24,000 nt of DNA from Clostridiales bacterium (GCA_015055625.1 SVHU01000006.1:32325-56324); one strand, 5' to 3'; shown: positions 3,642-24,000, counted from the stretch's first letter. Notes: generated by a model not told the origin, from the letters alone. Numbers and translations: made by a program.

Positions 3642-3723
3642 GCATTTTTTAAAAAATGTAGAAAATTTCTAGTAATTTTAGGAGGCAAAAAAAGTCGAAC
3701 TAAAAATATAATTATGTATTAGT

Positions 3724-3758
3724 AAACTAAAACCGCCCTATCGTGGATAGATAAGGCG
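3724..3758 (-). terminator. rho-independent terminator of the niaR / Q-rich membrane protein unit
   Basis: Minus strand cgccttatc / gatagggcg hairpin (3734-3758, one G-U pair) followed by ttttagttt. Confidence 0.7.
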
Positions 3759-3767
3759 ATTTGAGTT

Positions 3768-5909: not shown

Positions 5910-6431
5910 TTATTTATTGTCGTTTATAAGAATACCTAAAGCTGAAAGCGAAGCGATAATTCGTTCGTATGCCGATTCGTCTTTTACAGCAATGGTGTGT
6001 ATATGTAATCCGTCGGTTAGGTCGCATAGCAAACTAACGTCCGTTTCCGCGCTTTTTTTAGCAAATTCTTGGGCGTCAAAACGAGAAGAGATATTAAGGT
6101 CCGCCGAAATTTGACCGTAAAGCGAATGTTCTACCGTAACCGATACGACTTTTCCGCCGTTGTCGACGATTGCATAAAATTCGTCTAACGTTTTTTCTTT
6201 ACTGTGTTTGCAAATTACTGTTTTGTAGATGTCGTCGGATATTGTTTTGGGGACGGTGTATCCTAAGCGTTCGGAAATGATTTTTACACCGCTCGCTCTA
6301 AGCAACGCAACGTCGGATACTATTATTTGTCTTGTAACACCAGTAGCTTCTGCAAGCTTAGTCGCGCTAACTGGTTTTAGCGACGTAGAGAGAATATCTA
6401 TAATTTTTACTCTTCGTTTTTCTCCGCTCAT
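5910..6431 (-). CDS. niaR: NiaR/YrxA-type niacin-responsive transcriptional repressor (HTH + 3H domain)
   Basis: 173 aa. N-terminal HTH (KIIDILSTSLKPVSATKLAEATGVTRQIIVSDVALLRASGVKI). C-terminal 3H-domain histidines (VEHSLYG ... GLHIHTI). AAAGGAG SD upstream. Confidence 0.8.
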   Translation of the reverse strand: MSGEKRRVKIIDILSTSLKPVSATKLAEATGVTRQIIVSDVALLRASGVKIISERLGYTVPKTISDDIYKTVICKHSKEKTLDEFYAIVDNGGKVVSVTVEHSLYGQISADLNISSRFDAQEFAKKSAETDVSLLCDLTDGLHIHTIAVKDESAYERIIASLSALGILINDNK

Positions 6432-9038: not shown

Positions 9039-9083
9039 AGAAGAAATCTTCTTATTATGCTTGACAAAGAAGAAATCTTCTTA
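9039..9083. promoter_or_regulatory. two copies of a 16 bp palindrome-containing operator candidate (agaagaaatcttctta)
   Basis: Exact copies at 9039-9054 and 9068-9083, start-to-start spacing 29 bp. Each contains agaag-N4-cttct. Copy 2 fills the spacer of the plus-strand promoter. Copy 1 fills the spacer of the XRE promoter. Confidence 0.6.
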
Positions 9084-9089
9084 TATAAT
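9061..9089 (+). promoter_or_regulatory. perfect-consensus sigma-A promoter, divergent from the XRE gene
   Basis: TTGACA (9061-9066), exactly 17 nt spacer, TATAAT (9084-9089). Confidence 0.7.
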
Positions 9090-9095
9090 AGTAGT

Positions 9096-9314
9096 ACAAT
9101 TTGTTAAAACTGTAATAAATAGCAAAGAATTATTAAAGTTGTAGCAAAATGGTTTTAGCGAAAATATCTAAAAATACTATTCCTAAGACTTTTACAAAAG
9201 ACATTCCTATCCCTTTTAGAGAAGAGCAATCACGCCAAACCCTTGCGCGATAGCTCTTTTCTTTATTATATAATATAAAACACCTACGATTAAAATAAGT
9301 CGTAGGTGTTTTGT
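9096..9314 (+). ncRNA. candidate small transcript (~220 nt) between the consensus promoter and an intrinsic terminator; coding status unclear
   Basis: Bounded by the promoter at 9061-9089 and the hairpin at 9279-9310. The only ORF is 34 codons (9149-9253, MVLAKISKNTIPKTFTKDIPIPFREEQSRQTLAR) and it has no recognisable SD. Confidence 0.3.
9277..9314. terminator. bidirectional rho-independent terminator (ends the long minus-strand operon and the plus-strand small transcript)
   Basis: aacacctacg (9279-9288) / cgtaggtgtt (9301-9310) stem, with an A run before and a T run after. Confidence 0.8.
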
Positions 9315-9365: not shown

Positions 9366-9896
9366 TTAATAATTGTAGCCTGTTTGCAAAGCTTTGATGT
9401 TTGCCTCTAACAAGCTTGCGCGCTTTGCGGAAACTACGTGTTTCATAGCTTCGGTTGCGCTTTCGAGCGTTACAAGACCTGTTTCCTTGATCATTTTGCC
9501 AAGGATAATCATGTTTGCAAGAGTGGGAGTTCCTAGCTCGTTTGCAAGACGTGTAGCAGGAATGTAGTATGCGTCAACGTCTTTACGAACAACCTCTCTG
9601 GATATAAGAGCGCTGTCTACAAAGATTTTTCCGCCAGCTACCGTTGCGTTTTCGTACTTGTCGAGCGAGGGAAGATTCATTGCTATAAGAATTGTGGGGT
9701 TAGAAACGATGGGCGAGCCAACGGGTTCGTCGCTGATAATAACTCCGCAACTTGCCGTACCACCACGCATTTCAGGGCCGTATGAGGGAAGCCAGCTAAC
9801 CTGCTTGTTTTCCTCAAGACCTTCGTATGCTAAGCATTTTCCAGCAAAGAGAACGCCCTGTCCGCCGAATCCTGCGATAAGAATTTCGTTAGTCAT
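9366..9896 (-). CDS. 2-oxoacid:ferredoxin oxidoreductase, gamma subunit
   Basis: 176 aa. IAGFGGQGVLFAGK motif typical of POR/VOR/KOR gamma subunits. Confidence 0.9.
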   Translation of the reverse strand: MTNEILIAGFGGQGVLFAGKCLAYEGLEENKQVSWLPSYGPEMRGGTASCGVIISDEPVGSPIVSNPTILIAMNLPSLDKYENATVAGGKIFVDSALISREVVRKDVDAYYIPATRLANELGTPTLANMIILGKMIKETGLVTLESATEAMKHVVSAKRASLLEANIKALQTGYNY

Positions 9897-9899
9897 AGC

Positions 9900-10652
9900 T
9901 TAGTCCTCCTTTATTTGTGAACCCTTATCCTTGTACACGCCAAGGGGGTAGTAGGGAATCATATTGGTGTCAACCCACTCCAAAGCCTTAGCGGGAGTCA
10001 TACCCCAGTTTGTAGGACAGGTGGACACGATTTCGATAAGGGAGAATCCCTTACCTTCTACCTGATTTTTAAAAGCCTTCAAGATAGCCTTTTTAGCGTT
10101 TCTAACGTTTTTAACGTTGTTTACCGCAACACGCTCGATGTAGTAGGGAGCGTCGAGAGCGGAAAGCATTTCGCTTACCTTAATGGGATAGCCTGCGGTG
10201 TTCACGTCACGGCCGTAAGGCGAGGTTTGGGTAACCTGACCGGGAAGAGAGGTAGGAGCCATTTGTCCGCCTGTCATTCCGTAGATTGCGTTGTTTACGA
10301 AAATAATAGTGATGTTTTCGTTTCTTGTCGCCGCGTGAACGGTTTCAGCCATACCGATAGAAGCAAGGTCGCCGTCGCCCTGGTAGGTAAAGATAATATT
10401 TTCGGGCATAGCGCGCTTAAGACCGGTAGCAACTGCAGGAGCACGTCCGTGAGCTGCTTCTACCATATCGCAAGCAAAGTAGTCATAAGCCATTACTGCG
10501 CATCCAACGGGAGCAACACCAACAGTCTTACCTTCGATTCCAAGTTCGTCGATAGCCTCGGCTACAAGACGGTGAATAATACCGTGCGTACAACCGGGAC
10601 AGTAATGAAAAGGAGCATCTGTTAATGCCTTGGGTTTTTCAAAAACTTTCAT
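9900..10652 (-). CDS. 2-oxoacid:ferredoxin oxidoreductase, beta (TPP-binding) subunit
   Basis: 250 aa. N-terminal CPGCTHG cysteine motif and a GDGD TPP/Mg motif (YQGDGDLASIG). Confidence 0.9.
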   Translation of the reverse strand: MKVFEKPKALTDAPFHYCPGCTHGIIHRLVAEAIDELGIEGKTVGVAPVGCAVMAYDYFACDMVEAAHGRAPAVATGLKRAMPENIIFTYQGDGDLASIGMAETVHAATRNENITIIFVNNAIYGMTGGQMAPTSLPGQVTQTSPYGRDVNTAGYPIKVSEMLSALDAPYYIERVAVNNVKNVRNAKKAILKAFKNQVEGKGFSLIEIVSTCPTNWGMTPAKALEWVDTNMIPYYPLGVYKDKGSQIKED

Positions 10653-10654
10653 TA

Positions 10655-11716
10655 TTACTTAACCTCCTTTGCCATTTTCTTAATGCTTTCCAAAACCTGT
10701 TCGGGAGAGGGGATCATACCACCTGTGCGGTTGCAAAGAACTACGGGACGAGAACAATCAATAGCAAGTCTTACGTCTTCTATCATTTGTCCCATAGAAA
10801 GCTCTACGCTAATAAAGCCCTTTACGGTTTCGGATGCTTTTTTAAGTACTGCTTTGGGGAAAGGCCAAAGGGTAATAGGACGGATAAGACCAACTTTAAT
10901 ACCCTGTTTTCTAGCCTCTACTACCGCATTTTTAGAAATACGTGAAGCAATACCGAATGAAACTACGCAGTACTCTGCGTCTTCCATCATAAATTCTTCG
11001 TACATAACCTCGTTCTTTTCAATCTCGGCATATCTTTCATAGCGTTCGAAATTGGTTTGCTCGAGCTGTTCGGGGTTGAGGTAAAGCGAATTTACGATAT
11101 TGTGTTTTCTCTCGCCCTTTGTTCCTCTTACTGCCCAAGGCTTTTCAACCTCTTTAACTTCAAGCTCGGGAAGTTCAACGGGCTCCATCATCTGACCGAG
11201 CGTTCCGTCTGCAAGAAGCATTGTAGGAACTCTGTACTTGTCCGAAAGATCGAACGACTTAATAGTAAGGTCAGCCATTTCCTGAACGGATGCGGGTGCT
11301 ACTACGATAAGACGGTAGTCGCCGTGTCCGCCACCCTTTGTTGCTTGGAAATAATCGGACTGAGAGGGTTGTATTCCGCCAAGTCCGGGACCACCACGCT
11401 GTACGTTTACGATAAGAGCGGGAAGGTCTGCGCCTGCTATGTAAGAAATTCCCTCTTGTTTAAGAGAAATTCCAGGGCTGGAAGAAGACGTCATAACTCT
11501 AAAGCCTGCGCCTGCAACGCCGTATACCATGTTAATAGCCGAAACTTCGCTTTCAGCCTGGAGGAAAGTTCCGCCGATTTTGGGCATACGTTTAGCCATA
11601 TAAGCCGCAATTTCCGTTTGGGGAGTGATGGGGTAACCGAAGTAGTGTCTGCAACCTGCTTTGATTGCAGCTTCCGCGATTGCCTCGTTACCTTTCATTA
11701 AAACTTTATTACTCAT
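10655..11716 (-). CDS. 2-oxoacid:ferredoxin oxidoreductase, alpha subunit
   Basis: 353 aa. MKGNEAIAEAAIKAGCRHYFGYPITPQTEI is typical of the OFOR alpha N-terminal domain. Confidence 0.9.
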   Translation of the reverse strand: MSNKVLMKGNEAIAEAAIKAGCRHYFGYPITPQTEIAAYMAKRMPKIGGTFLQAESEVSAINMVYGVAGAGFRVMTSSSSPGISLKQEGISYIAGADLPALIVNVQRGGPGLGGIQPSQSDYFQATKGGGHGDYRLIVVAPASVQEMADLTIKSFDLSDKYRVPTMLLADGTLGQMMEPVELPELEVKEVEKPWAVRGTKGERKHNIVNSLYLNPEQLEQTNFERYERYAEIEKNEVMYEEFMMEDAEYCVVSFGIASRISKNAVVEARKQGIKVGLIRPITLWPFPKAVLKKASETVKGFISVELSMGQMIEDVRLAIDCSRPVVLCNRTGGMIPSPEQVLESIKKMAKEVK

Positions 11717-11724
11717 AATTCACC

Positions 11725-11931
11725 TCACTTTTCGACAGTAATTACACAGTCGGGGCACATTGTAGCGCAGAACGCGCATCCAATGCACTTTTCCTGATCG
11801 GTAATTTCCGCCGGAGAATGACCTTTTGCGTTAATTCTGTCTTTTGCGATAGCCAGAATTTTTTTGGGGCATGCGTCTATACAAAGTCCGCATCCCTTGC
11901 AAAGATTGTCGTTAAAAGTTACCTTTGCCAT
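11725..11931 (-). CDS. 2-oxoacid:ferredoxin oxidoreductase, delta subunit (2x[4Fe-4S] ferredoxin)
   Basis: Two CxxCxxCxxxCP motifs (CKGCGLCIDACP, CIGCAFCATMCP). Start moved from the track's 11955 to the ATG at 11931 (MAKVTF), which has AAGGAG 9 nt upstream. Confidence 0.85.
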   Translation of the reverse strand: MAKVTFNDNLCKGCGLCIDACPKKILAIAKDRINAKGHSPAEITDQEKCIGCAFCATMCPDCVITVEK

Positions 11932-11935
11932 ACTT

Positions 11936-12607
11936 TTATATCTCCTTAATATCAAAATATTTTTTTTGTAACGTCATAGCGAACGTGTTGTCCGCGTTAA
12001 GATTTTTGCTCACCTCTTGCGTACAAGAAGTAAACAGCAACGGAAGTCCTGTTTTTTCGCAAAGCTCTTTAGCTTTATTAAACGTGCTCTCAACGTCTTT
12101 TGCCGTGGTAAGGTTGCCAAGGTTAGAGTTGTTTACAACGCTTGTAAACTTGATTTTGCACGCGTCCTCTATCTCGCGCATAACCTCGATAGCAGAGTCT
12201 GCGTCGGGAGTTAAGGGACGGAAGAAGTTTGCAACAAATACCATTTCGTAGTTGTTTTCTTCCTTTATAAAGTCTGCGTATCTGCCTAAGGCGTACGCGC
12301 CTCTGTCGTCGCCACCTACATCTAAAACAGCGTAGTAACTCTTGTCCCAAACTAGCGCGTAAAGTTGTTGAGGAAGAGCGGGAAGATCAACGTTAGAATT
12401 TGCAAAAGCAGGGGAAATAAGCTCTATGCCCGCATCGCTTAGCTCTTTAGCGCTATCCTTTGTTCTAAAGTACGGATTGACGATATCCATATCTCCAATT
12501 TTTACAGGATAACCGTTTTGCTTAATACGTATTGCGTAATTTACGGCAATATTGGTTTTACCACTACCGTAATGACCGGCAAATATCGTTATGCGTTTAG
12601 GTTCCAT
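11936..12607 (-). CDS. P-loop NTPase of unknown role (SIMIBI/GPN-loop-like)
   Basis: Walker A motif GHYGSGKT near the N-terminus. The ATG at 12605-12607 overlaps the ilvE stop as TAATG. The track start at 12616 is a TTG. Confidence 0.75.
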   Translation of the reverse strand: MEPKRITIFAGHYGSGKTNIAVNYAIRIKQNGYPVKIGDMDIVNPYFRTKDSAKELSDAGIELISPAFANSNVDLPALPQQLYALVWDKSYYAVLDVGGDDRGAYALGRYADFIKEENNYEMVFVANFFRPLTPDADSAIEVMREIEDACKIKFTSVVNNSNLGNLTTAKDVESTFNKAKELCEKTGLPLLFTSCTQEVSKNLNADNTFAMTLQKKYFDIKEI

Positions 12608-13683
12608 TATTTGCAAACCTTTACGCTCCAGCCCTTATTCTCTTCGATCTTGCCCCACTGAATACCGGTAAGGTTGTCGTAGAGTTTTTGAGTAAGAGGT
12701 CCAATTTCGTTATTGGAAACAGTGTAGTCTTTTCCGTTGTAGAAAAGATGTCCGATGGGCGAAACAACCGCTGCAGTTCCTGTTCCCCAAGCTTCTTCCA
12801 ACGTTCCTTTTTCACAAGCTTCAAATAACTCGTCGATAGAGAAAAGTCTTTCTTCAACTTCGTATCCCCAATCCTTTAGTAGCTCGATGCAAGACTTTCT
12901 GGTAATACCGGGAAGAATAGATCCGCTAAGCATAGGAGTTACTATTTTGCCGTTTATCTTGAACATAACGTTCATAGCGCCAACTTCTTCGATGTACTTT
13001 CTTTCCACACCGTCAAGCCACAAAACCTGAGCATAGCCCTTTTCTTCAGCGCGCTGACCTGCTCTCATGCTTGCAGCGTAGTTACCACCGCACTTAGCAT
13101 ATCCAGTTCCGCCTCTAACTGCTCTTACGTCCTCGCTCTCGATAGCGATTTTAACGGGCTTAAGACCAGAAGCGTAGTAAGCGCCTACGGGTGAGCAAAT
13201 AATAACGAACATTGCGTTGTGTACTGCGTGTACGCCAAGATGGGGATCGTCACCGTAAATAAAGGGACGAATGTAAAGCGAAGTACCCTCGTTGTGGGGA
13301 ACCCAATCTTTTTCGAGCTCTACAAGCTTGTTAATGATGTCCAAAGCGCCCTCTTCATCAAGAAGGGGAAGACAAATTCTCTCCGCGCTCTGGTTAAGAC
13401 GCTTAACGTTCTCCATGGGACGGAAAAGTCTGATAGATCCGTCGACAGCTCTATAAGCTTTCATACCCTCGAAGATTTCCGCTCCGTAGTGGAAAACCGT
13501 GGAAGCAGGATGTGTTGGGATAGGTCCGAACGGAACGATTCTTCCGTCGTGCCAACCCTTATCCGAAGAATATTCCATAATGAACATGTGATCGGTAAAA
13601 ATTCTTCCAAATCCAAGCTTGCTCTCGTCAGCAGGCTTTGGCTGGGGATTAGTTGTTTTAGTAATAGTGATATCGTATTTCAT
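12607..13683 (-). CDS. ilvE: branched-chain amino acid aminotransferase (class IV, long form)
   Basis: 358 aa. FGRIFTDHMF, EGMKAYR and GTGTAAVVSPI motifs. GGAGG SD upstream. Confidence 0.9.
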   Translation of the reverse strand: MKYDITITKTTNPQPKPADESKLGFGRIFTDHMFIMEYSSDKGWHDGRIVPFGPIPTHPASTVFHYGAEIFEGMKAYRAVDGSIRLFRPMENVKRLNQSAERICLPLLDEEGALDIINKLVELEKDWVPHNEGTSLYIRPFIYGDDPHLGVHAVHNAMFVIICSPVGAYYASGLKPVKIAIESEDVRAVRGGTGYAKCGGNYAASMRAGQRAEEKGYAQVLWLDGVERKYIEEVGAMNVMFKINGKIVTPMLSGSILPGITRKSCIELLKDWGYEVEERLFSIDELFEACEKGTLEEAWGTGTAAVVSPIGHLFYNGKDYTVSNNEIGPLTQKLYDNLTGIQWGKIEENKGWSVKVCK

Positions 13684-13706
13684 AATTTGTTACCTCCTGT
13701 AAAAAA

Positions 13707-16004
13707 TTATAACTTATTTCTCATAATCTTTCCGCTGGTGGTCTTGGGAAGTTCGTCGCGGAACACAACCACTCTGGGATATTTGTAAGGTGCGGTACGT
13801 TTCTTAACGTATTCCTGTACCTCTTTTTTGAGCGCTTCGGTAGGCTCTGTACCCTTAACAAGCACGATGCTTGCTTTTACAATCTGGCCTCTTACCTCGT
13901 CGGGCATTGCGGAAACTCCACACTCCAAAACGTAGGGAAGTTCCATAATAACGTTTTCGATTTCGAATGGTCCAATGCGGTATCCTGACGATTTTATGAC
14001 GTCGTCAACACGACCTACGTACCAATAATATCCGTCCTCGTCGCGCCAAGCGGTGTCGCCTGTGTGGTATAAGCCGTTACGTCTGACCTCGCTAGTCTTT
14101 TCCTCGTCCTCAAAGTAGCCGAGCGTAAGTCCGCAAGGGTTGCCTTTGCTTATATCAATAACAATTTCACCTACTTCGCCGACTGCAACGGGTTTGTCAT
14201 CACTGTTTACAAGCGAAATGTTATAAAGCGGGACGGGTTTACCCATAGAGCCAATCTTGGTTTTTGTTCCAAAAAGGTTAGCAAGCGCAACCGTGGTTTC
14301 GGTTTGACCAAATCCTTCCATAATTTGAAGTCCGGTAGCCTTTTCAAACTGACGGAAAACTTCGGGGTTAAGCGCTTCGCCTGCTGTGGTCATATGTTCT
14401 ATGGAAGATAGGTCAAAGTTGGAAAGGTCTTGTTTTATCATCATACGAAGCATTGTGGGTGGAGCGCAGAAAGTAGTAATATGATGCTTTGCAAACATGG
14501 GCATAATATCGTTTGCGTCAAACCTGTCAAAGTCGTACACGAATATGGGCGCTTCGCAAAGCCACTGACCGTATATCTTACCCCAGGCAGCTTTTGCCCA
14601 ACCTGTGTCGGAAATGGAAAGGTGTAATCCATCGGGGTTTACGCAATGCCAATACTTTGCGGTAACAAAATGTCCAAGAGGATATTTGTAGTTGTGCATA
14701 GCAACCTTGGGATTGCCCGTTGTTCCCGACGTAAAGTACATAAGCATCAAATCGTTGCCACAGGGAGAGTCTTCCGTTCTTTCGAACTTGCTGGAATATA
14801 AAGTATATTCTTCGTCAAAGTTTCTCCAGCCCTTTTTTTCGCCGTTTACGATAATTTTATGTTCAAGACAGGGAGCAAACTCGCTTGCCTTTTCTACCTC
14901 GTCCGAAACGTCGCCGTCCGCTGTACAAAGAATCATTTTTACGCCAGCTTTATTAAGACGGTATGTTATATCATGCTCTTTAAGCTGATTGGTAGCTGGA
15001 ATTGCAATAGCGCCTATCTTGTGAAGAGCGACCATAGCAAACCAGAACTGATAATGGCGCTTTAGGATAAGCATAACCTTGTCGCCCTTTTTTATACCTA
15101 AAGACTTAAAGTAGTTAGCGGTTTTTGCCGACATTTTCTTTATATCGGTAAATGTAAATCTTCTTTCCGTCTTGTCCTTAGCAATATGCAAAAGAGCAAG
15201 CTTGTCGGGATGAGCGGTTGCCATTGCGTCGATTACGTCAAAGCCGAAGTTGAACGTATTTTCGTTTTCAAAAGCGATCTTTTCAAGCTGACCGTTTTCG
15301 TTTTCGGTAGGAATAATAAACTTATTCCAAACGCGCTTAGGCTCGGGCTTTTTGTTTTGCTTTCTAACCGTGATAAATTCTCTTGCTCCGCCGTGAACGA
15401 GCTTAGAGATAGGCTCGGACGCAGGGTTAAGTACGATTGCGTAGAAGATACAGTCTGCTCCGCCTGTTGCAATCATTCCGTGAGGGGTGGAGGAGTCGTA
15501 GTAAATACTATCACCTTCGCCCAAGATTTCAACGTGGTCACCAACTTGCACTTTAAGCGTGCCCTTAACAACGATATCACATTCCTGACCTTCATGGGTA
15601 GTAAGCTCGATGTCCGCGTTTTGCGCGTTTTCGTCATAGTCGGAAATAACGTACAAGGGTTCTGCAATACGATTTTTAAAAGCAGATGCTAAGTTAAAAT
15701 ACGTCATACCGTGCGCTTTCTGAATTTGTTGTCCCTCACCCTTTCTTGTAACGGTATAGCCTGCAAGACGAGGGCCTGTTCCTTCGATAATTTCGGTAAC
15801 GTCTACGTTAAGCGCAAGAGCGCAACGGTACAAAAACGCGAAGTTAAGGTCGGATTTTCCGCTTTCGCAGTCTAGGTATTCCTGTAAAGTTACTCCAGTC
15901 TTTGTCGCCATATCCATTGTCGTAAGACCGATAATTTCACGCAAAGTCTTAATTCTTTGCGCCATTTCCTGAATCTTAAATTCAAGACCTGTTGCTGTTT
16001 GCAT
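13707..16004 (-). CDS. fusion protein: XRE HTH + cupin domain + medium-chain AMP-forming acyl-CoA synthetase (paralogue A)
   Basis: 765 aa from the ATG at 16004 (MQTATGLEF...), with AAGGAGG 6 nt upstream. The track's extra 55 N-terminal codons run through the T-box terminator. It has an HTH (TMDMATKTGVTLQEYLDCESGKSDL) and a cupin (GTLKVQVGDHVEILGEGDSIYYDSSTPHGM). The adenylation motifs are FTSGTTGNPK, SDTGWAKAAW, YHTGD, GRVDDVIKSSGYRIGPFEIE and PKTTSGKIMR. Confidence 0.9.
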   Translation of the reverse strand: MQTATGLEFKIQEMAQRIKTLREIIGLTTMDMATKTGVTLQEYLDCESGKSDLNFAFLYRCALALNVDVTEIIEGTGPRLAGYTVTRKGEGQQIQKAHGMTYFNLASAFKNRIAEPLYVISDYDENAQNADIELTTHEGQECDIVVKGTLKVQVGDHVEILGEGDSIYYDSSTPHGMIATGGADCIFYAIVLNPASEPISKLVHGGAREFITVRKQNKKPEPKRVWNKFIIPTENENGQLEKIAFENENTFNFGFDVIDAMATAHPDKLALLHIAKDKTERRFTFTDIKKMSAKTANYFKSLGIKKGDKVMLILKRHYQFWFAMVALHKIGAIAIPATNQLKEHDITYRLNKAGVKMILCTADGDVSDEVEKASEFAPCLEHKIIVNGEKKGWRNFDEEYTLYSSKFERTEDSPCGNDLMLMYFTSGTTGNPKVAMHNYKYPLGHFVTAKYWHCVNPDGLHLSISDTGWAKAAWGKIYGQWLCEAPIFVYDFDRFDANDIMPMFAKHHITTFCAPPTMLRMMIKQDLSNFDLSSIEHMTTAGEALNPEVFRQFEKATGLQIMEGFGQTETTVALANLFGTKTKIGSMGKPVPLYNISLVNSDDKPVAVGEVGEIVIDISKGNPCGLTLGYFEDEEKTSEVRRNGLYHTGDTAWRDEDGYYWYVGRVDDVIKSSGYRIGPFEIENVIMELPYVLECGVSAMPDEVRGQIVKASIVLVKGTEPTEALKKEVQEYVKKRTAPYKYPRVVVFRDELPKTTSGKIMRNKL

Positions 16005-16030
16005 TAAAAACCTCCTTGGTAGGGCTCTTA

Positions 16031-16308
16031 TATAAAAACTCGCCCCAAACGATAAAATCCTTTGAGACGAGTAAAATTCTTTATACCCGCGGTACCACTC
16101 AAATTGTACGCTTATTTTGCGTACCACTTTCAGGCTCTGACAAGCCGTATGCCTTAACGCAGCAATCACGAGGAAGTTCTACTTAAAAACTCTTTCTTCT
16201 TCCCTGCTCTGAAGTTACATCAAACGCTTTTACGTGGCGGTTTTCACCCTGTTCCGCCTCTCTGTAACGCAATTTTACGCGGTTGAACTCTTCGTCTATG
16301 CATTTGTA
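16031..16308 (-). promoter_or_regulatory. T-box riboswitch leader, putative specifier GUA (Val)
   Basis: On the minus strand I see these elements:
- Stem I with an AGAGAG bulge and a GGGTGAAAA distal loop.
- An F-box-like CGTGATTGCTGCGTTA.
- A stem III hairpin gtacgc...gcgtac.
- The T-box sequence AATTTGAGTGGTACCGCGGG (16086-16105).
- A terminator actcgtctcaaa/tttggggcgagt (16038-16072) followed by TTTTT.
The candidate specifier GUA is at 16216-16218, followed by A and then the CUUC lower stem. Confidence 0.85.
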
Positions 16309-16314
16309 CAAGTG

Positions 16315-16344
16315 ATTATAGCATACTAAGTGAAATCTTGTCAA
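16315..16344 (-). promoter_or_regulatory. promoter of T-box leader A
   Basis: Minus strand TTGACA (16339-16344), 18 nt spacer, TGcTATAAT (-10 at 16315-16320). Confidence 0.7.
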
Positions 16345-16373
16345 TAAAAATTAGAGTTTAATTTAATAATAAA

Positions 16374-18644
16374 TTAAAGTTTATTTCTCTGAATTTTTCC
16401 GCTGATAGTTTTAGGAAGCTCGTCCTTAAACACAATAACTCTTGGGTATTTATAGGGAGCGGTGTGTGATTTTACGTAGTTTTGAATTTCTTTTTTAAGT
16501 TCTTCTGAAGGCTCGGTGCCCTTAGTAAGAACAATACTTGCTTTTACAATCTGTCCACGGATTTCGTCGGGAACGGCGGATACACCGCATTCCACAACGT
16601 ATGGAAGTTCCATAATAACGCTTTCGATTTCGAACGGTCCAATGCGGTAGCCAGAAGACTTGATAACGTCGTCTATACGGCTAACGTACCAAAAATATCC
16701 GTCCTCGTCTTTCCAAGCGGTGTCGCCCGTATGATACATTCCGTCGTACCAAGCATCGTTTGTCTTTTCTTCGTCGAGATAATATTCTCTAAAGAGTCCG
16801 CAAGGAACGTTTTTGTCGGTGTGAACAACAATTTCACCAACTTCACCGGGAGCAACTGATTTGCCTTCGCTGTCCACGATATCAATATCATACTGGGGAG
16901 AAGCTTTACCCATAGATCCAATCTTGGGAGTTGTTCCGTAAAGGTTAGCGATTGTAAGAGTGGTTTCGGTTTGACCAAATCCTTCCATAATTTCAAGCCC
17001 GGTAGCTTGCTTAAACTGTTTGAATACTTCGGGGTTGAGCGCTTCGCCTGCCGTAGTCATGTGGTGGATAGAGGAAAGATCGAACTTGGATAAGTCACCT
17101 CTGATAAGCATACGGAGCATTGTGGGAGGAGCGCAGAATGTGGTGATCTGGTACTTTGCAAACATGGGAAGAATGTCGTTTTCGTCAAACTTGTCAAAGT
17201 CGTATACGAACACCGCGCCCTCGCAAAGCCACTGTCCGTAAAGCTTACCCCACAAAGATTTACCCCAACCGGTATCGGAGATTGTAAGATGTAAGCCGTC
17301 GCGTTCGCAACAATGCCAATATTTAGCGGTTACAAAATGACCTAAAGCGTAGGTGTGCTTGTGCGCAGCCATCTTAGGATTGCCGGTAGTTCCGGACGTG
17401 AAGAACATAAGAGCAATGTCGTCGCCACAAGACGCGTCTTCGGGACGAACGAAACGGCGAGAGAAGAACTTGTATTCTTCGTCAAAGTCGTGCCAGCCCT
17501 CTTTCTTTCCGCCCACCAAAATACGGGTTTGAACGGAAGGACACTTAAGAGAAGCGGAGTATGCGATATCCGCAACGTCGCCGTCAGCGGTACAAACGAT
17601 TGCTTTTACACCAGCCGCGTTGTAGCGGTATTCAAAGTCGTGTTCTTTAAGCTGGTTGGTTGCAGGAATTGCAACAGCGCCAAGCTTGTGAAGAGCTACC
17701 ATAGCAAACCAGAACTGGTAATGACGCTTAAGAACGAGCATAACCTTATCACCGCGCTTGATGCCAAGAGAAGCAAAATAGTTAGCAGTCTGGTTACTTG
17801 CGTCCTTGATATCTTTGAAGGTAAATCTTCTTTCGTTTTTATGCTTGTCAAGATGCAACATTGCAAGTTTATCGGGATACGTACGCGCGATTTGGTCAAC
17901 AATGTCAAAACCGAAGTTGAACGAATCGGTGTTTTCGAACGTGATGCTTTCAAGCTTTCCGTCCTCGCTTTCCACGGGTTTTACAAACTTTTCGCAAATG
18001 AGTTTTTCCTGACTTCTTGCCGTGATGATAGTACGCTGAACGATATCTTCCTTGGTGTCTTCGCCTGCGATAACTACCGCGCAGAAGGTACAGTCCTTAC
18101 CGTCTATTGCAATCATTCCGTGAGGAGTGGATGAGTCGTAGTAAATGCTGTCGCCCTCGTGCAAAATCTCGGTGTGGTTGCCAACCTGAACTTTCAAAGT
18201 TCCGCTAAGAACAAGGTCAAACTCGTGTCCGCTGTGTGTGGTAACGTGAATGGGCTTGTTTTGAAGCGAAGCCGAATATTCGTAGGTTACGTAATAAGGC
18301 TGAGCGAGTTTGTTACGGAACTTAGATGCAAGGTTTTGAATGGTTATACCGTCCTCTTTAGCGGTGGTAAGACCTTGACCTTTTCTAGTTACAGTGTAGT
18401 TAGAAAGGCGTGTTGCTCTACCTTCCAACAACTCTGTCATTTCAATATTGAAAGCAAGCGAACATTTGTGAATGAATGTAAATGGAATGTCCGCAGTTCC
18501 GCTTTCATAAGCGTTATAAAGTTCGGTAGAAACGTCGGTTTTTACAGCCATTTCTTCCTCGGTCCAGCCCATAATTTCACGCATTTCTCTGATACGTGTT
18601 GCGATATCTGATAATCTGCGCATAGAATTGTTTTGGTTGTTCAT
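16374..18644 (-). CDS. fusion protein: XRE HTH + cupin domain + medium-chain AMP-forming acyl-CoA synthetase (paralogue B)
   Basis: 756 aa, same architecture as paralogue A. It has an HTH (EEEMAVKTDVSTELYNAYESGTADI) and a cupin (HSGHEFDLVLSGTLKVQVGNHTEILHEGDSIYYDSSTPHGM). The adenylation motifs are FTSGTTGNPK, SDTGWGKSLW, YHTGD, SRIDDVIKSSGYRIGPFEIE and PKTISGKIQR. AAGGAGAA SD upstream. Confidence 0.9.
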   Translation of the reverse strand: MNNQNNSMRRLSDIATRIREMREIMGWTEEEMAVKTDVSTELYNAYESGTADIPFTFIHKCSLAFNIEMTELLEGRATRLSNYTVTRKGQGLTTAKEDGITIQNLASKFRNKLAQPYYVTYEYSASLQNKPIHVTTHSGHEFDLVLSGTLKVQVGNHTEILHEGDSIYYDSSTPHGMIAIDGKDCTFCAVVIAGEDTKEDIVQRTIITARSQEKLICEKFVKPVESEDGKLESITFENTDSFNFGFDIVDQIARTYPDKLAMLHLDKHKNERRFTFKDIKDASNQTANYFASLGIKRGDKVMLVLKRHYQFWFAMVALHKLGAVAIPATNQLKEHDFEYRYNAAGVKAIVCTADGDVADIAYSASLKCPSVQTRILVGGKKEGWHDFDEEYKFFSRRFVRPEDASCGDDIALMFFTSGTTGNPKMAAHKHTYALGHFVTAKYWHCCERDGLHLTISDTGWGKSLWGKLYGQWLCEGAVFVYDFDKFDENDILPMFAKYQITTFCAPPTMLRMLIRGDLSKFDLSSIHHMTTAGEALNPEVFKQFKQATGLEIMEGFGQTETTLTIANLYGTTPKIGSMGKASPQYDIDIVDSEGKSVAPGEVGEIVVHTDKNVPCGLFREYYLDEEKTNDAWYDGMYHTGDTAWKDEDGYFWYVSRIDDVIKSSGYRIGPFEIESVIMELPYVVECGVSAVPDEIRGQIVKASIVLTKGTEPSEELKKEIQNYVKSHTAPYKYPRVIVFKDELPKTISGKIQRNKL

Positions 18645-18691
18645 ATTACTTTCTCCTTGTAAATAAAAGTTTAGATTTTAGGTCGAGGCAA

Positions 18692-18959
18692 TAAAAAAAT
18701 TCGCCTCAAAAACTTTGAGACGAATTATAAAAATCCGTGGTACCACTCAAATTGCGTAAATTTTTACGCCACTTCAGACTCCAACAAGCCCTATGCACTA
18801 ACGTAGCAATCACGTAAGTCTTTACTTACTTTCGCTTTCAAAACTTCAGCTTGGAAGTGATAAGATATTCGAAGTTTGTTTGTCGGTTTTCACCATGCCC
18901 AACTCTCTGTAAAACTCACATTCGACTCCGTCTTCGTCGTAGCCTTTGATTAAATTGAT
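18692..18959 (-). promoter_or_regulatory. T-box riboswitch leader, putative specifier AUC (Ile)
   Basis: On the minus strand I see these elements:
- An AGAGAG bulge and a GGTGAAAA distal loop.
- An F-box-like CGTGATTGCTACGTTA.
- A stem III hairpin gcgtaaa...tttacgc.
- The T-box sequence AATTTGAGTGGTACCACGG (18735-18753).
- A terminator attcgtctcaaa/tttgaggcgaat (18699-18725) followed by TTTTTTT.
The candidate specifier AUC is at 18859-18861, followed by A and then the CUUC lower stem. Confidence 0.85.
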
Positions 18960-18965
18960 GTAGCA

Positions 18966-18994
18966 ATTATAACACCGCATTTCGCACTTGTCAA
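18966..18994 (-). promoter_or_regulatory. promoter of T-box leader B
   Basis: Minus strand TTGACA (18989-18994), 17 nt spacer, TGtTATAAT (-10 at 18966-18971). Confidence 0.7.
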
Positions 18995-19281: not shown

Positions 19282-19294
19282 ACATAACCACCTT

Positions 19295-19368
19295 CGTGGA
19301 ATTCCATACAGGTATTCCACGAAAATAGTATAAGAATTTTAAAAATTATTATCTCGTGGAGTTCCACG
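19295..19368. promoter_or_regulatory. operator candidates built on GTGGAA/TTCCAC half-sites
   Basis: IR1 is cgtggaat-N11-attccacg (19295-19321) and contains tggaattcca. IR2 is cgtgga-gt-tccacg (19355-19368). Both lie in the divergent intergenic region between the XRE-like gene and the SMP-30-family gene. Confidence 0.5.
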
Positions 19369-20404: not shown

Positions 20405-22861
20405 TTACTTTTTAAGTCCAAGCATTTCTTCGGACTGTTCTTTCATCTTGTACTTCAAGATTTTGCCCGCAGCATTCATGGGGAAGGTTTTTGCAAATAC
20501 GATGTATCTGGGAACTTTGTGTAAAGCCATGTGAGCTTTTCCGTAGTTCTTCATTTCTTCCTCACTGCTTTCCATTCCTTCGTGAAGGATAATCCAAGCG
20601 CAAGCTTCTTCGCCATAACGAGGATCGGGAACGCCAACAACCTGTACGTCGCGAACTTTTTCGTGGGTTAAGTAAAACTCTTCGATTTCTCTGGGATACA
20701 AGTTTTCTCCGCCACGGATAATCATATCCTTAAGTCTGCCCGTAATTTTGTAGTATCCGTCCTCGGTCTTGCAAGCAAGGTCGCCACTGTGAAGCCAGCC
20801 GTCTGCGTCAATAGTTTGAGCGGTTGCTTTGGGCATTTTGTAGTAGCCTTTCATTATATTAAAGCCTCTTGCTACAAATTCGCCGTTTTGACCTGCAGGA
20901 AGTTCGTCGCCTGTTTCGGGATCGATAATTTTACACTCAACGCCGGGGAATGCGCTACCAACGGTTTCCACTCTGTGGTCGATATCCTCGTTAACCTCGC
21001 CCATAGTACATCCGGGCGATGCTTCGGTCTGACCGTAAACGGAAAGAATTTCTTTCATATTCATTTCGTCCGCAGCTCTTCTCATTAGGTCAGCAGGGCA
21101 GTTTGCGCCCGCCATAATTCCCGTACGCATATATGAAAAGTCGGTTTTAGCAAAGTCTTCGTGGTTGAACATTGCGATAAACATTGTGGGAACGCCGTTA
21201 AAGCAGGTTATCTTTTCGGCATTGATGCACGCAAGCGAGGACTTGGGGCTAAAGTATGGCATAGGACATACCGTTCCGCCGTGAGTCATAAGGTTGGTCA
21301 TAGAAAGTACCATTCCAAAGCAGTGGAACATAGGTACTTGAATCATCATTCTGTCAGCGGTAGAAATATCCATTCTGTCGCCGATGGTCTTACCGTTGTT
21401 GATGATGTTGCGGTGAGTAAGCATAACGCCTTTAGGGAAGCCTGTTGTTCCTGACGTGTACTGCATATTACATACGTCGTCGGGTTTTACAGCAGAAGCT
21501 CTTCTTCTTACTTCCTCTTTTGGAACAAGCGAGGAACGAAGCAACATTTCTTCCCACTCCAAGCATCCGTCCATCTTAAAGCCTACCGTTACAACGTTAC
21601 GAAGGAAGGGAAGCTTTTTAGAATAGAGGGGAGCGCCGGGGGTAAGCGTTTTAAGCTCGGGGCAAAGCTCTTCGATAATAGCCTTATAGTCAGAGTCCTT
21701 ACAGCTGTCTATCATAACGAGTGTATGCGTGTCGGACTGACGAAGCAAGTATTCGGTTTCGTGAATTTTGTAAGCGGTGTTTACTGTTACGAGTACCGCG
21801 CCGATTTTTACCGTTGCCCAAAAGGTTATGAACCACTGGGGAATATTGGTTGCCCAGATTGCAACGTGATGCCCGGGCTTTACGCCAAGAGATATAAGCG
21901 CTGCCGCCGTTCTGTCCACATCGTCCCTGAACTGCGAGTAAGTTCTCGTGTAGTCGAGCGTTGTATACTTAAACGCATACTGGTCGGGATAGTAGTCTAC
22001 CATAGTGTCGAGAACCTGTGAGAATGTAAGATCGACAAGATCGTATTTTTTCCAAGGATGAGTACCTGTTTTGCTTCTGTTATAATATACCGGACGGGCA
22101 GGTTTTTCTTGTGGCATAACCGACGCCATAAAGCGAGTAAAATGAGTAAGGATAATGTCTTCGTCGTCAATATCGTCATTCCAAAGCGCGCAAACGTATC
22201 CGTCAAAGTTGAGCGAACGGAGAGCGTTAATAAAGTCTGCTACCGGCAAATCGCCCTCGCCAATCAGACAGTTAACGCCGTCTTTTTTGTCGCCTATAAG
22301 AACGTAGTTAATGTACGCGCCCAAGGTTTGAATAGTAGCATCCGCGCTCTCTGAAGATGTAAAGAAAGTTTCTCTTACGTTCCAAGCAACACCAAGCGCG
22401 CCGGAAGCAAAAATGTTCAAAATGTCGATAACGTTTTGCGTTTTTGCGTACTTTCCGCTAGTTTCAATAAGTACCATTACGCCCAAATTTTCTGCTTTTT
22501 TAACAAGAGGAGCAATGGTAGAAATAAGCGCGTCAATCGTTTCGTTGTCGTCAAGTGATACAACGAGATTTTCAATTTGTGCGGTTGCGCAATACTCCAA
22601 ATATTCGTTTGCCTCGTCAATATCCAAAGAAGCGTTTACTTTTTTAGGATATGCAATCGCGCTGATACCGATGTGGCGGTTGACAAGCTTACGCTTAGCG
22701 CCTGCGGTATTGTTGGAGTGGAATATACTGTCTTTATGTTGCGTTTTTTCCTGTTTTGCGTCGTAAATTTCAAAGCCGTCAAAACCGTAGTCTTTAACCT
22801 TGTTACAAAGCTCAAGAAAGGAAGATCCGCACACGTGTTTTGTAGAAAATGCAAGTTTCAT
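20405..22861 (-). CDS. fusion protein: xylose-isomerase-like TIM-barrel (AP_endonuc_2-type) domain + AMP-forming acyl-CoA ligase (FadD-like)
   Basis: 818 aa. The first ~250 aa resemble the sugar-phosphate isomerase/epimerase TIM barrel (FDGFEIY ... LIETSGKYA ... FDGYVCALW). The rest carries adenylation motifs YTSGTTGFPKGVMLTH, GWLHSGD, GRLKDMIIRGGENLYPREIE and AAGKILK. Confidence 0.85.
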   Translation of the reverse strand: MKLAFSTKHVCGSSFLELCNKVKDYGFDGFEIYDAKQEKTQHKDSIFHSNNTAGAKRKLVNRHIGISAIAYPKKVNASLDIDEANEYLEYCATAQIENLVVSLDDNETIDALISTIAPLVKKAENLGVMVLIETSGKYAKTQNVIDILNIFASGALGVAWNVRETFFTSSESADATIQTLGAYINYVLIGDKKDGVNCLIGEGDLPVADFINALRSLNFDGYVCALWNDDIDDEDIILTHFTRFMASVMPQEKPARPVYYNRSKTGTHPWKKYDLVDLTFSQVLDTMVDYYPDQYAFKYTTLDYTRTYSQFRDDVDRTAAALISLGVKPGHHVAIWATNIPQWFITFWATVKIGAVLVTVNTAYKIHETEYLLRQSDTHTLVMIDSCKDSDYKAIIEELCPELKTLTPGAPLYSKKLPFLRNVVTVGFKMDGCLEWEEMLLRSSLVPKEEVRRRASAVKPDDVCNMQYTSGTTGFPKGVMLTHRNIINNGKTIGDRMDISTADRMMIQVPMFHCFGMVLSMTNLMTHGGTVCPMPYFSPKSSLACINAEKITCFNGVPTMFIAMFNHEDFAKTDFSYMRTGIMAGANCPADLMRRAADEMNMKEILSVYGQTEASPGCTMGEVNEDIDHRVETVGSAFPGVECKIIDPETGDELPAGQNGEFVARGFNIMKGYYKMPKATAQTIDADGWLHSGDLACKTEDGYYKITGRLKDMIIRGGENLYPREIEEFYLTHEKVRDVQVVGVPDPRYGEEACAWIILHEGMESSEEEMKNYGKAHMALHKVPRYIVFAKTFPMNAAGKILKYKMKEQSEEMLGLKK

Positions 22862-22863
22862 AT

Positions 22864-24000
22864 TTAGTTTTCCTCGTATACGATTTTGTTAAGAGCGTTT
22901 ATATATGCTCTGATGCACGCGCCGATAACGTCTGTGGATACACCGCTGCCCGAATACAGCTTGCCGTTTGCGATAAGACGAATAAGCGAAGAAGCCGCAG
23001 CCTCTCTACCCTTTGTAATAGACTGAATCTGGAAGTCGTCAAGTTCGTAGTGATGACCGATAATTTGCTCGATTGCATGAAAAGCTGCGTCAACAGGACC
23101 GTCCCCTGCACTTACGCCAATAAGGTTCTCGCCATCCTTTTCCAAGGTTATGCTTGCAGTTGCGGTAATAATGTTTCCGCTGTTTACAACGTAGTTTACG
23201 AGATGGAAAGTTGAGGGAACTTGCATTGCGGTACTTGCTACTATTGCATCAAGTTCACGTGTTGCAATATTTCCCTTTCTTTCGCTTACGCGCTTAAACT
23301 CTTCATAAACTTTGCCGTTATCCTCGTCCGAAAGCTCGTAGCCGAGTTCTTTGATCTTTTCGATAATAACGGAAAGAGAAGCGGATGCGTCAATGGTAGA
23401 ACCTGCGTCTTTATTGGGCTTAGATGTAGGCTCGTTGTCCGAGATAGTAGATACCGTATTGTGGATAGACGTACAATCGAGGTTGCAATCAAACTGAATT
23501 TCGTCGCCCTTTGCTCTCATAAGGTCAGCAAATTTGTCTGGGCGCATAACGTCGCCGTCGGTTGCGGTCTTAACGCCAATCGCGCCGTTTTCTAAAGATG
23601 CTACCGCGCAAGCACAAGCAAGAGAAATCTTGTCTGAGGTTGCTACGTATACTTTTACTTCAGGAGCAACGCTACATACTTCTTTTATAAGCGCACCCAT
23701 TTTGCAAGGGAATGCAATTCCTGCATCGTCGCATACGGTAATCTCGGTTGCCCCATTTTCAATAGCAACTTTTGCGCACTGAGCAACAAAACCGTTTTCA
23801 GCTCTCGTTGCGTCTGTTGCAACAAATTCTACCGTATAGCCCGTTTCACTAGCTTTTTTAGTGATAGATGCAATTTTTTCCAGCATCTTAGGTGCTTTTA
23901 AGTGGTAGGTGTACTCCATAACCACGGTGGACGTGGGCATAATAACCTGCAAAACTGCGTTTTCGGCATTCTTTGCCATTTCGATTGCAGCGGTAAAGGA
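22864..24000 (-). CDS. 2-isopropylmalate synthase-like protein with a degenerate catalytic domain and an intact LeuA_dimer regulatory domain; 5' end outside the window
   Basis: The frame stays open to 24000. The C-terminus matches the LeuA allosteric domain (GDGPVDAAFHAIEQI ... GSGVSTDVIGACIRAYINALNKI). The upstream HMGL-like part aligns to LeuA, but DTVGY is DDAGI and the HxH(N/D)D metal motif is ATSDK. The stop lies 2 nt from the start of the next gene. Confidence 0.75.
   Translation of the reverse strand, partial: SFTAAIEMAKNAENAVLQVIMPTSTVVMEYTYHLKAPKMLEKIASITKKASETGYTVEFVATDATRAENGFVAQCAKVAIENGATEITVCDDAGIAFPCKMGALIKEVCSVAPEVKVYVATSDKISLACACAVASLENGAIGVKTATDGDVMRPDKFADLMRAKGDEIQFDCNLDCTSIHNTVSTISDNEPTSKPNKDAGSTIDASASLSVIIEKIKELGYELSDEDNGKVYEEFKRVSERKGNIATRELDAIVASTAMQVPSTFHLVNYVVNSGNIITATASITLEKDGENLIGVSAGDGPVDAAFHAIEQIIGHHYELDDFQIQSITKGREAAASSLIRLIANGKLYSGSGVSTDVIGACIRAYINALNKIVYEEN

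Follow-up and report, generated by a model that had tools for sequence, protein, structure and literature searches.

A candidate T-box-controlled operon for the salvage of branched-chain fatty acids to valine and isoleucine in gut Oscillospirales

A 24,000-nucleotide (nt) stretch of DNA from a Clostridiales bacterium (GCA_015055625.1 SVHU01000006.1:32325-56324), which was analysed as a whole and is hereafter called the window, contains a compact unit on the minus strand (18994-9277) comprising eight co-directional genes, which lie between a consensus promoter and an intrinsic terminator, and two T-box leaders (Table 1). The genes encode two paralogous acyl-coenzyme A (CoA) synthetases (ACS-B and ACS-A), a branched-chain amino acid aminotransferase (IlvE), a P-loop NTPase, and the delta, alpha, beta, and gamma subunits of a 2-oxoacid:ferredoxin oxidoreductase. 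A preliminary description of the window had read this unit as a system for the conversion of branched-chain fatty acids to Val and Ile. Its gene order and coordinates are borne out by Pfam and NCBIfam matches, which place every gene at or beside the positions it gave, and the gaps it listed downstream of ACS-A (23 nt, a TAATG overlap, and then 4, 8, 2, and 3 nt) are all right. The upstream promoter at 18966-18994 is likewise a complete consensus match with an extended TG, and the operon-ending terminator, originally placed at 9277-9314, corresponds to a stable hairpin at 9312-9277, which was missed by the consensus terminator scan because of its 10-nt loop. The window sequence is identical to contigs in Joint Genome Institute (JGI) metagenomes (source contig, L001), and the arrangement is not due to chance, since it recurs in dozens of species-level genomes.

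Leader 1 lies in front of ACS-B, and leader 2 in front of seven genes, ACS-A through gamma. Each leader ends in an intrinsic terminator whose fold is far better than those of shuffled sequences, and a promoter equivalent to P1 is present ~25 nt 5' of every orthologous leader. The longest open reading frame (ORF) of ACS-A starts at GTG 16169 (13707-16169, 820 amino acids [aa]) and spans T-box 2 and its terminator. The true start is ATG 16004, located behind AAGGAGG, which yields a protein of 765 aa and agrees with the gene predicted in the source metagenome. Annotation pipelines that select the longest ORF would hide leader 2 inside ACS-A.

Table 1. Features of the operon and of the adjoining leucine-related genes in the window.
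Feature	Position	Strand	Details
Promoter P1	18966..18994	-	TTGACA, 17-nt spacer, TATAAT, extended TG; 12/12 vs sigma-70-type consensus
T-box leader 1, Ile-specific	18713..18949	-	RF00230, 103.6 bits; specifier AUC at 18861-18859, next base A
Leader 1 T-box sequence AAUUUGAGUGGUACCACGG	18735..18753	-	Read from leader 1
Leader 1 intrinsic terminator and U-run	18698..18726	-	Terminator scan; fold -14.2 kcal/mol, z = -5.1
ACS-B	16374..18644	-	XRE-family helix-turn-helix (HTH) + cupin + AMP-forming acyl-CoA synthetase, 756 aa; Ile-gated clade; Gly461 in DTGWGK
Promoter P2	16315..16344	-	TTGACA, 18-nt spacer, TATAAT, extended TG; 12/12 vs consensus
T-box leader 2, Val-specific	16060..16307	-	RF00230, 99.0 bits; specifier GUA at 16218-16216, next base A
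Leader 2 T-box sequence	16087..16104	-	Read from leader 2
Leader 2 intrinsic terminator and U-run	16038..16072	-	Fold -19.6 kcal/mol, z = -6.4
ACS-A	13707..16004	-	XRE-HTH + cupin + AMP-forming acyl-CoA synthetase, 765 aa; Val-gated clade; Ala470 in DTGWAK
ilvE, branched-chain amino acid aminotransferase (class IV, IlvE type II)	12607..13683	-	358 aa; NF009897 478.6 (cut-off 307), TIGR01123 400.3 (cut-off 250.05)
P-loop NTPase, SIMIBI-like	11936..12607	-	223 aa; Walker A GHYGSGKT
Oxidoreductase delta, 2x[4Fe-4S] ferredoxin-like	11725..11931	-	68 aa; Fer4-family Pfam matches; PorD/KorD families below cut-offs
Oxidoreductase alpha, VorB subfamily	10655..11716	-	353 aa; POR_N and PFOR_II domains; NF005507
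Oxidoreductase beta, thiamine pyrophosphate-binding	9900..10652	-	250 aa; TPP_enzyme_C; PorB/KorB families below cut-offs
Oxidoreductase gamma	9366..9896	-	176 aa; PF01558 POR 123 bits; NF006323 125 bits, cut-off 235
Operon-end intrinsic terminator	9277..9312	-	13-bp stem, 10-nt loop, U-run; repeat 100% complementary; -16.8 kcal/mol, z = -4.7
LeuA-like synthase, cut by window end	22864..23979	-	Pfam/NCBIfam; protein 456 aa
Xylose-isomerase-like triosephosphate isomerase (TIM) barrel (AP_endonuc_2) + FadD/PRK12583-type acyl-CoA synthetase fusion	20405..22861	-	Pfam/NCBIfam

Both leaders match the Rfam T-box model over its entire length (model positions 1-219 of 219) on the minus strand, where the curated gathering score is 93, and the gating of the operon by two T-boxes, as originally proposed, is thereby supported. 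Each contains a kink-turn (K-turn), a specifier loop, an AGAGA bulge, a distal loop, UGGU, and a terminator/antiterminator switch. The specifier was read from the tetranucleotide adjoining the 5' side of the helix above the K-turn, i.e. AUC-A and GUA-A in leaders 1 and 2, respectively, and is followed in both by CUUC, which pairs with the GAAG located after the GA motif. The T-box sequence AAUUUGAGUGGUACC(A/G)CGG, containing the UGGN for the NCCA 3' end of tRNA, is common to the two leaders. No tRNA gene was found within the window.

To place these codons in context, 80 genome loci were analysed together with metagenome loci by means of tblastn and of iterative nhmmer searches that started from a profile of the two T-boxes of the window. 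Rfam confirmed a subset of the leaders at these loci as T-boxes, and practically all fusion synthetases have a T-box on their 5' side. Automatic parsing mis-called the specifier in ~15% of the leaders; the exceptions were re-read by hand and a stricter pattern was applied. AUC is kept in all leaders classed as Ile-type (62/62), and GUA or GUC is present in all leaders classed as Val-type (49/49). Every leader of an ACS-B-type gene carries AUC, and every leader of an ACS-A-type gene carries GUA or GUC. The base following the specifier is often C, not a purine, in Ile leaders, but the codon itself is conserved across orthologous leaders. Ile and Val, which had been named as the leader amino acids from the outset, are thus the amino acids specified across ~80 species genomes. 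T-box leaders turn genes on when the cognate tRNA is uncharged, i.e. when the amino acid is scarce. In all characterised T-boxes, the specifier matches the amino acid that is supplied by the controlled genes (PMC2494555). Judged by their codons, the two leaders are not interchangeable: Ile is predicted to gate ACS-B, and Val to gate ACS-A and the rest of the operon.

Relatives of the fusion synthetases are encoded in at least 597 species-level genomes, described as uncultured Oscillospirales (Acutalibacteraceae, Oscillospiraceae, 'Faecousia', and others) and as metagenome-assembled genomes (MAGs) labelled Christensenellaceae, from the guts of yak, goat, sheep, deer, cattle, horse, chicken, and human. 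Among the best 150 of 1.8 billion representatives, no more than three further clusters at 50% identity were found to have the fusion architecture at full length. In 52 loci, at least 3 kb of sequence is available after the last synthetase, and 38 of these contain the P-loop gene and the oxidoreductase directly 3' of the synthetase, usually with IlvE. The T-box/HTH-cupin-synthetase/oxidoreductase synteny noticed in the window is therefore kept in other genomes. IlvE usually follows gamma (27 loci) and more rarely precedes the P-loop gene, as in the window (2 loci). The oxidoreductase lies directly behind an Ile-gated synthetase in L012, L013, L032-L034, L042, and L061. In four 'Faecousia'-like loci (L029, L035, L043, and L051), the second synthetase begins ~90-110 nt after the first and has no T-box of its own, so that a single Ile leader precedes both paralogues and the oxidoreductase; their close relatives L046, L047, and L049 retain the second leader. 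These varied layouts indicate that the wiring between leaders and oxidoreductase is evolutionarily plastic.

ACS-A and ACS-B are 64% identical to each other. Both contain AMP-binding (PF00501, 223.7 and 218.8 bits in the pair) and AMP-binding_C domains (PF13193, 77 bits) and keep the motifs TSGTTGNPK, GFGQTET, YHTGD, and PKT(I/T)SGKI, including the catalytic Lys. By a wide margin, the closest solved relative of both is PDB 3etc (E = 4e-188 for ACS-B and 1.5e-178 for ACS-A), the Macs enzyme of Methanosarcina acetivorans, in agreement with their earlier placement in the medium-chain (ACSM/MACS-like) group. Macs prefers 2-methylbutyrate, which is the only substrate that it takes efficiently to the CoA ester, and it adenylates propionate too (PMC10455477).

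Assignment of the relatives to A- or B-type by best match was ambiguous for distant members and was replaced by a tree. In a neighbour-joining tree of 104 full-length synthetases, the root split separates a clade in which all members are Val-gated from one in which all are Ile-gated, with one exception, i.e. the specifier agrees with the clade in 103 of the 104 fusion synthetases. The exception, L055_12293 (L055 12293-14892), has a GUA leader and an Ile-clade synthetase with Gly (DTGWGK), and nests in the tree beside its own genomic neighbour (L055 9673-12244); it looks like a recent duplication whose leader changed first. We defined clade-discriminating positions as those that are at least 85% conserved inside each clade and different between the clades, and 13 were found. 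Only one of them is located in the catalytic part (~540 residues), namely the fifth residue of DTGW[G/A]K, which is Gly in 61/61 Ile-type enzymes and Ala in 42/42 Val-type enzymes.

This residue aligns without gaps (BLASTP) to the Val after DVGW in a stretch of sequence taken to be that of Escherichia coli acetyl-CoA synthetase, the internal numbering of which fits the known V310, V386, and W414. In the M. thermautotrophicus enzyme, the equivalent residue, Ile312, belongs to a set of four in the acyl pocket that determine acyl specificity, and a smaller residue at this site is associated with isobutyrate and butyrate as substrates (PMC3477478). Acetyl-CoA synthetase is confined to acetate by a Trp (PMC8383264), in place of which both ACS-A and ACS-B have Gly (GFGQTET). 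Macs has Gly at the discriminating position (DSGWGK), as do the Ile-type enzymes, and the distant Val-gated enzyme P0122 has Ala. In L088, whose cluster is 56% identical to ACS-B, the first gene has an AUC leader and the second a GUC leader, and the second enzyme contains DTGWAK. The Gly of the Ile-gated enzymes is predicted to leave a roomier pocket, which fits 2-methylbutyrate (C5), and the Ala of the Val-gated enzymes a tighter one, which fits isobutyrate (C4); one methyl group of the enzyme would then be expected to track one carbon of the predicted substrate. On balance, we favour ACS-B as a predicted 2-methylbutyrate-CoA ligase and ACS-A as a predicted isobutyrate-CoA ligase, an assignment that we make with moderate confidence.

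Some synthetases depart from this pattern. In the most distant member of the fusion family (L087 1432-7978, 45% identity), an Ile T-box precedes two synthetases in tandem, the aminotransferase that comes next is of class I/II and is not IlvE, and the second synthetase contains DTAWEK where the others have DTGW[G/A]K. A fusion synthetase is also encoded by a MAG whose bin is labelled Kiritimatiellaeota (L082 10001-12238), and neither a T-box nor a nearby oxidoreductase was detected there; it may represent horizontal transfer or a binning error. A plain synthetase that is 57% identical and lacks the N-terminal module (P0126) was considered as a member of the system and rejected, because it has no T-box and its context is unrelated, from which we conclude that the system goes with the fusion family.

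The gene behind ACS-A passes two equivalog cut-offs for the aminotransferase (Table 1), which confirms the initial identification of IlvE. Among the oxidoreductase subunits, alpha passes the VorB model NF005507 (565.6 bits against a cut-off of 399), with residues 2-350 aligned to profile positions 2-350 of 352. The gene directly 5' of delta encodes the P-loop protein in 48/48 loci, with a median gap of ~25 nt. This protein is sub-threshold in Pfam (ParA, 25.9 vs 27.1 bits; CbiA, 20.4 vs 25.4 bits), and its Walker A lacks the signature Lys of the deviant MinD/ParA/Mrp motif KGGxGK[ST]. No sequence relative of it was found in the PDB, and all named homologues among the matches listed are annotated as 'hypothetical protein'. 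A Foldseek search with its AlphaFold2 (AF2) model (predicted local distance difference test [pLDDT] score, 83) returned SRP54/FtsY, ATPase-type HypB, and FleN with template modelling (TM) scores of ~0.55, consistent with a SIMIBI-like fold that belongs to no single family. The invariant adjacency to delta suggests, on the model of other NTPases of the SIMIBI class, a role in the assembly, Fe-S maturation, or activation of the oxidoreductase, and the P-loop protein is probably an assembly or maturation factor of this enzyme.

Taken together, these features make it quite probable, in our judgement, that the locus is a T-box-gated system for the salvage of branched acids to branched-chain amino acids (BCAAs). 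In the proposed mechanism, each arm would consist of a strong constitutive promoter and a T-box leader at which transcription stops except when the cognate tRNA is uncharged. Uncharged tRNA-Ile would read AUC and stabilise the antiterminator of leader 1, allowing ACS-B to be made, and uncharged tRNA-Val would read GUA in leader 2, allowing ACS-A, IlvE, the P-loop protein, and the four-subunit oxidoreductase to be made. ACS-B and ACS-A would activate exogenous 2-methylbutyrate and isobutyrate, respectively, to their CoA thioesters, with conversion of ATP to AMP and pyrophosphate (PPi). With reduced ferredoxin and CO2, the VorB-type oxidoreductase would then convert the acyl-CoA to 2-oxo-3-methylvalerate or 2-oxoisovalerate, which IlvE would transaminate to Ile or Val. 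The computational tests agree with, and lend support to, such an anabolic route from branched-chain fatty acids to Val and Ile; the substrates, the direction of the oxidoreductase, and the response to tRNA are what we infer from the sequences.

The direction is the point at which a catabolic function has to be weighed. The reaction of 2-oxoacid:ferredoxin oxidoreductases can run either way, and BCAA fermentation of the Stickland type makes use of the same three classes of enzyme. Val and Ile could thus be fermented via IlvE and oxidative decarboxylation to acyl-CoA, with the AMP-forming synthetases running in reverse to conserve energy from AMP and PPi; a pyrophosphate-dependent reverse reaction of an AMP-forming synthetase reportedly occurs in Syntrophus. 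The strongest argument for the anabolic direction is the starvation-inducible control, since a cell would not break down Val when tRNA-Val is uncharged, and T-box induction under Ile or Val scarcity would make such breakdown self-defeating. The specifier moreover tracks both the clade and the pocket residue, as expected when a precursor is matched to the product that is needed. Domain annotation of the operon revealed neither ptb/buk nor ADP-forming synthetase genes, which, together with the AMP-forming ligases, argues for synthesis over fermentation. We therefore regard a catabolic role as highly improbable.

Several observations weigh against the salvage of branched acids to BCAAs as the function of the operon. 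The best NCBIfam model for both synthetases is Staphylococcus aureus MbcS (NF047394), an enzyme that activates 2-methylbutyrate and isobutyrate (PMC10026030), and their scores of 451.0 and 431.7 bits are far below its equivalog cut-off of 850 bits, so that ACS-B and ACS-A are to be regarded as relatives of MbcS and not as its orthologues. In 12 of the 52 loci with sufficient downstream sequence, a gated synthetase is present without any oxidoreductase in the locus, which leaves room for another use of the acyl-CoA. Both observations bear on the possibility that the gated synthetases make branched acyl-CoA starters for membrane lipids when BCAA-derived primers are short, amino acid synthesis being secondary or absent. 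By means of MbcS, isobutyrate and 2-methylbutyrate are channelled into the synthesis of branched-chain fatty acids (PMC10026030, PMC11167679), and such a supply of primers could explain the 12 loci. It would need neither the oxidoreductase nor IlvE, which are the usual companions of the synthetase in the other loci described above, and the scores well under the MbcS cut-off also speak against it. As the sole or principal function, primer supply is unlikely; the lipid-primer and amino acid uses of the acyl-CoA are not mutually exclusive, however, and primer supply may well be an additional use.

A further set of counter-observations concerns the substrates. The beta (122 vs 364 bits), gamma (125 vs 235 bits), and delta (51 vs 125 bits) subunits have the expected Pfam domains but pass no substrate-specific NCBIfam cut-off; among the subunits, the earlier reading of the oxidoreductase as a 2-oxoisovalerate:ferredoxin oxidoreductase (VOR) is supported at the family level by alpha. 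Among solved structures, those closest to alpha are 2-oxoglutarate or broad-specificity enzymes. The oxidoreductase substrate is accordingly the weakest enzymatic link, because it is indicated by the family assignment of one subunit and by context. The mapping of the synthetase pocket residue, moreover, is provisional, in that it used a sequence taken to be that of Acs. Finally, the oxidoreductase and IlvE of the window lie behind the Val leader only, and Ile salvage would therefore need leader 2 to be open too, or basal read-through.

The Ile arm might activate propionate, with the oxidoreductase making 2-oxobutyrate that feeds IlvBNCD, or the oxidoreductase might be a 2-oxoglutarate or pyruvate synthase that supplies the amino donor or carbon only. 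The synthesis of Ile from propionate by reductive carboxylation is known in anaerobes, and the adenylation of propionate by Macs (PMC10455477) and the solved relatives of alpha fit such schemes. The pocket residues do not: a Gly pocket in the Ile-type enzymes that is roomier than the Ala pocket of the Val-type enzymes is the wrong way round for C3 versus C4 and the right way round for 2-methylbutyrate. Macs, which shares this Gly, completes the reaction only with 2-methylbutyrate (PMC10455477), and the oxidoreductase lies behind a Val specifier in most genomes. Different substrates of this kind are thus quite improbable, and the route from branched acids to Val and Ile is preferred.

The N-terminal module of the synthetases (~215 aa) consists of an XRE-HTH and a cupin. 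In ACS-B, HTH_19 (33.8 bits vs a gathering score of 30.2), HTH_3 (30.9 vs 23), and Cupin_2 (46.4 vs 27.2) were detected by Pfam; in ACS-A, Cupin_2 scored 49.5 bits and the HTH was below the cut-off. The remaining 12 of the 13 clade-discriminating residues sit in this module (residues 11-117). Among the 104 synthetases (loci L001-L084), identity in the module is 0.435 between the clades and 0.57-0.61 within them, whereas the corresponding values are 0.67 and 0.70 in the N-terminal part of the catalytic region and 0.86 and 0.87 in the C-terminal lid. The near-equal catalytic identities could reflect concerted evolution of the catalytic part, or else a divergence limited to a putative sensor module. 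Divergence of the module between the paralogues suggests a paralogue-specific function, e.g. ligand or DNA recognition, and the module is probably a second, paralogue-specific sensor. Visual comparison of the aligned ~110 nt 5' of all leaders revealed nothing in common beyond the promoter and the 5' T-box consensus, and no clear palindrome, for which reason no target can be proposed for the HTH. A PDB sequence search with the module returned nothing at E <= 0.01, and its AF2 model, based on an 8-sequence alignment, was poor (pLDDT, 59.5; cupin part, <50). As a tentative extension, which we hold to be possible and would not put more strongly, the synthetases may be sensor-enzymes, in which the module binds a paralogue-specific ligand (the cognate amino acid, the branched acid, or the acyl-CoA) and tunes the enzyme or transcription on top of the T-box, and the P-loop NTPase may be a nucleotide-dependent assembly or activation factor of the anabolic oxidoreductase. 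If the synthetases are such sensor-enzymes, salvage would respond both to demand, by way of tRNA charging, and to supply or product, by way of a metabolite.

A third set of genes lies upstream of the operon. The LeuA-like gene is followed by the TIM-barrel-synthetase gene in all 34 loci where the sequence permits the test, and the pair adjoins the Ile/Val unit in many genomes, in divergent orientation or downstream. On L001, a T-box (4075-4312; RF00230, 117.1 bits) is located directly 5' of leuA, just past base 24000 of the window, and the specifier of the LeuA leaders was CUC or CUG in every case read. Three BCAA-specific T-boxes are thus predicted to control three acyl-CoA synthetases in one neighbourhood. 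The Leu T-box would control the LeuA-like enzyme and the third synthetase. The LeuA-like protein scores well below the isopropylmalate synthase cut-offs (230 vs 532), and a possible route from isovalerate to leucine is an idea that we put forward tentatively for this arm.

Two HTH genes flank the operon. A small XRE-family HTH gene (9026-8826, minus strand) is located downstream and has its own terminator (8799-8769). The 17-nt sequence AGAAGAAATCTTCTTAT, which is an internal palindrome, occurs twice in identical form just 5' of its start, at 9039-9055 and 9068-9084, and these copies overlap a promoter-like site found by scanning the plus strand (9061-9089); the gene looks like one for an autoregulated repressor, to judge from these repeats. 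Upstream of P1, a 77-aa HTH-like gene (19281-19048, minus strand) is preceded by the inverted repeat TTCGTGGAATTCC / GGTATTCCACGAA (19293-19323) and is confined to the lineage of the window (L001-L003), being absent from the other species. Both genes were considered as regulators of the operon and rejected, the upstream one being lineage-confined and both having operator-like repeats 5' of their own starts. The other neighbours (585-1613, 2377-5888, and 5910-6431) encode a DAHP synthase, two large proteins in which zinc ribbons are the only domains that can be recognised, and an HTH_11 + 3H-domain regulator (NiaR-like); none of these was conserved beside the operon in the other genomes compared. 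In L027, a Gut-1 RNA (280-352; RF01706, 51.5 bits vs a gathering score of 50) was found far from the operon.

With respect to known systems, the leaders resemble the T-boxes of Firmicutes that precede aminoacyl-tRNA synthetase, biosynthesis, and transporter genes, both in their full-length match to RF00230 and in the fit of the specifier to the amino acid supplied. They differ in that the controlled genes encode an acyl-CoA synthetase fusion and a 2-oxoacid:ferredoxin oxidoreductase and that three BCAA leaders partition three synthetases in one locus. ACS-A and ACS-B share their catalytic fold and core motifs with Macs and MbcS, and the Ile-type enzymes share the Gly of Macs, but, unlike these enzymes, both carry an XRE-HTH + cupin module and are T-box gated. 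MbcS serves lipid synthesis and not amino acid synthesis (PMC10026030), unlike the role predicted here. The combination of an adenylate-forming enzyme with an HTH recalls the BirA-type enzyme-repressor fusions, a resemblance only, since the HTH is of the XRE type, the enzyme fold is different, a cupin lies between the two, no operator was found near the promoters, and DNA binding by the present proteins is putative.

It has been known for about sixty years that branched-chain volatile fatty acids are required or used by many fibre-degrading anaerobes of the rumen and hindgut, which make Val, Ile, and Leu out of them, and branched short-chain fatty acids abound in the gut. In the 1960s-70s, Allison and co-workers reportedly established by labelling and enzyme assays that rumen anaerobes convert isobutyrate, 2-methylbutyrate, and isovalerate to Val, Ile, and Leu, respectively. 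The operon resembles this reductive carboxylation and the anabolic VOR of methanogens in its three predicted steps (activation, ferredoxin-dependent carboxylation, and transamination), in the VorB subfamily of alpha, and in the occurrence of its relatives in genomes from ruminants and other gut sources; unlike in the labelling work, the genes, their order, an accessory P-loop protein, and a regulatory signal can be named here. A literature search found no bacterial operon, genes, or regulator assigned to the reductive carboxylation of branched acids, and nothing that links a T-box with an acyl-CoA synthetase, a VOR, or branched-acid salvage, although an earlier mention is not fully excludable; acyl-CoA synthetase and 2-oxoacid:ferredoxin oxidoreductase genes are not mentioned in the T-box regulon surveys that were searched. 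The preliminary description, which knew of no such regulon or operon, is in line with this outcome. Taken singly, T-box riboswitches, synthetases that activate branched acids, oxidoreductases of the VOR type, and the formation of BCAAs by reductive carboxylation are all established. What appears to be new is that they are combined in one regulon, that a T-box precedes acyl-CoA synthetase and oxidoreductase genes, that control is divided three ways among Ile, Val, and Leu, that synthetases are fused to an HTH-cupin module or to a TIM barrel, and that a P-loop protein is linked to the oxidoreductase.

The locus would provide a complete candidate gene set and control logic for a long-known pathway in hundreds of gut Oscillospirales species, and the specifiers AUC, GUA, and CUC would constitute a readable code for which arm serves which amino acid. 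The Gly/Ala difference offers a prediction of substrate choice by a single residue that is testable by point mutation, and two unstudied proteins are flagged, i.e. the oxidoreductase-linked P-loop NTPase and the enzyme-fused HTH-cupin module. Branched-chain volatile fatty acids have been studied as supplements for dairy cattle (PMC11770298). With these genes in hand, metagenomes and metatranscriptomes could be scored for dependence on branched acids. More generally, T-box control would be extended from making, charging, or importing an amino acid to scavenging its fermentation product.

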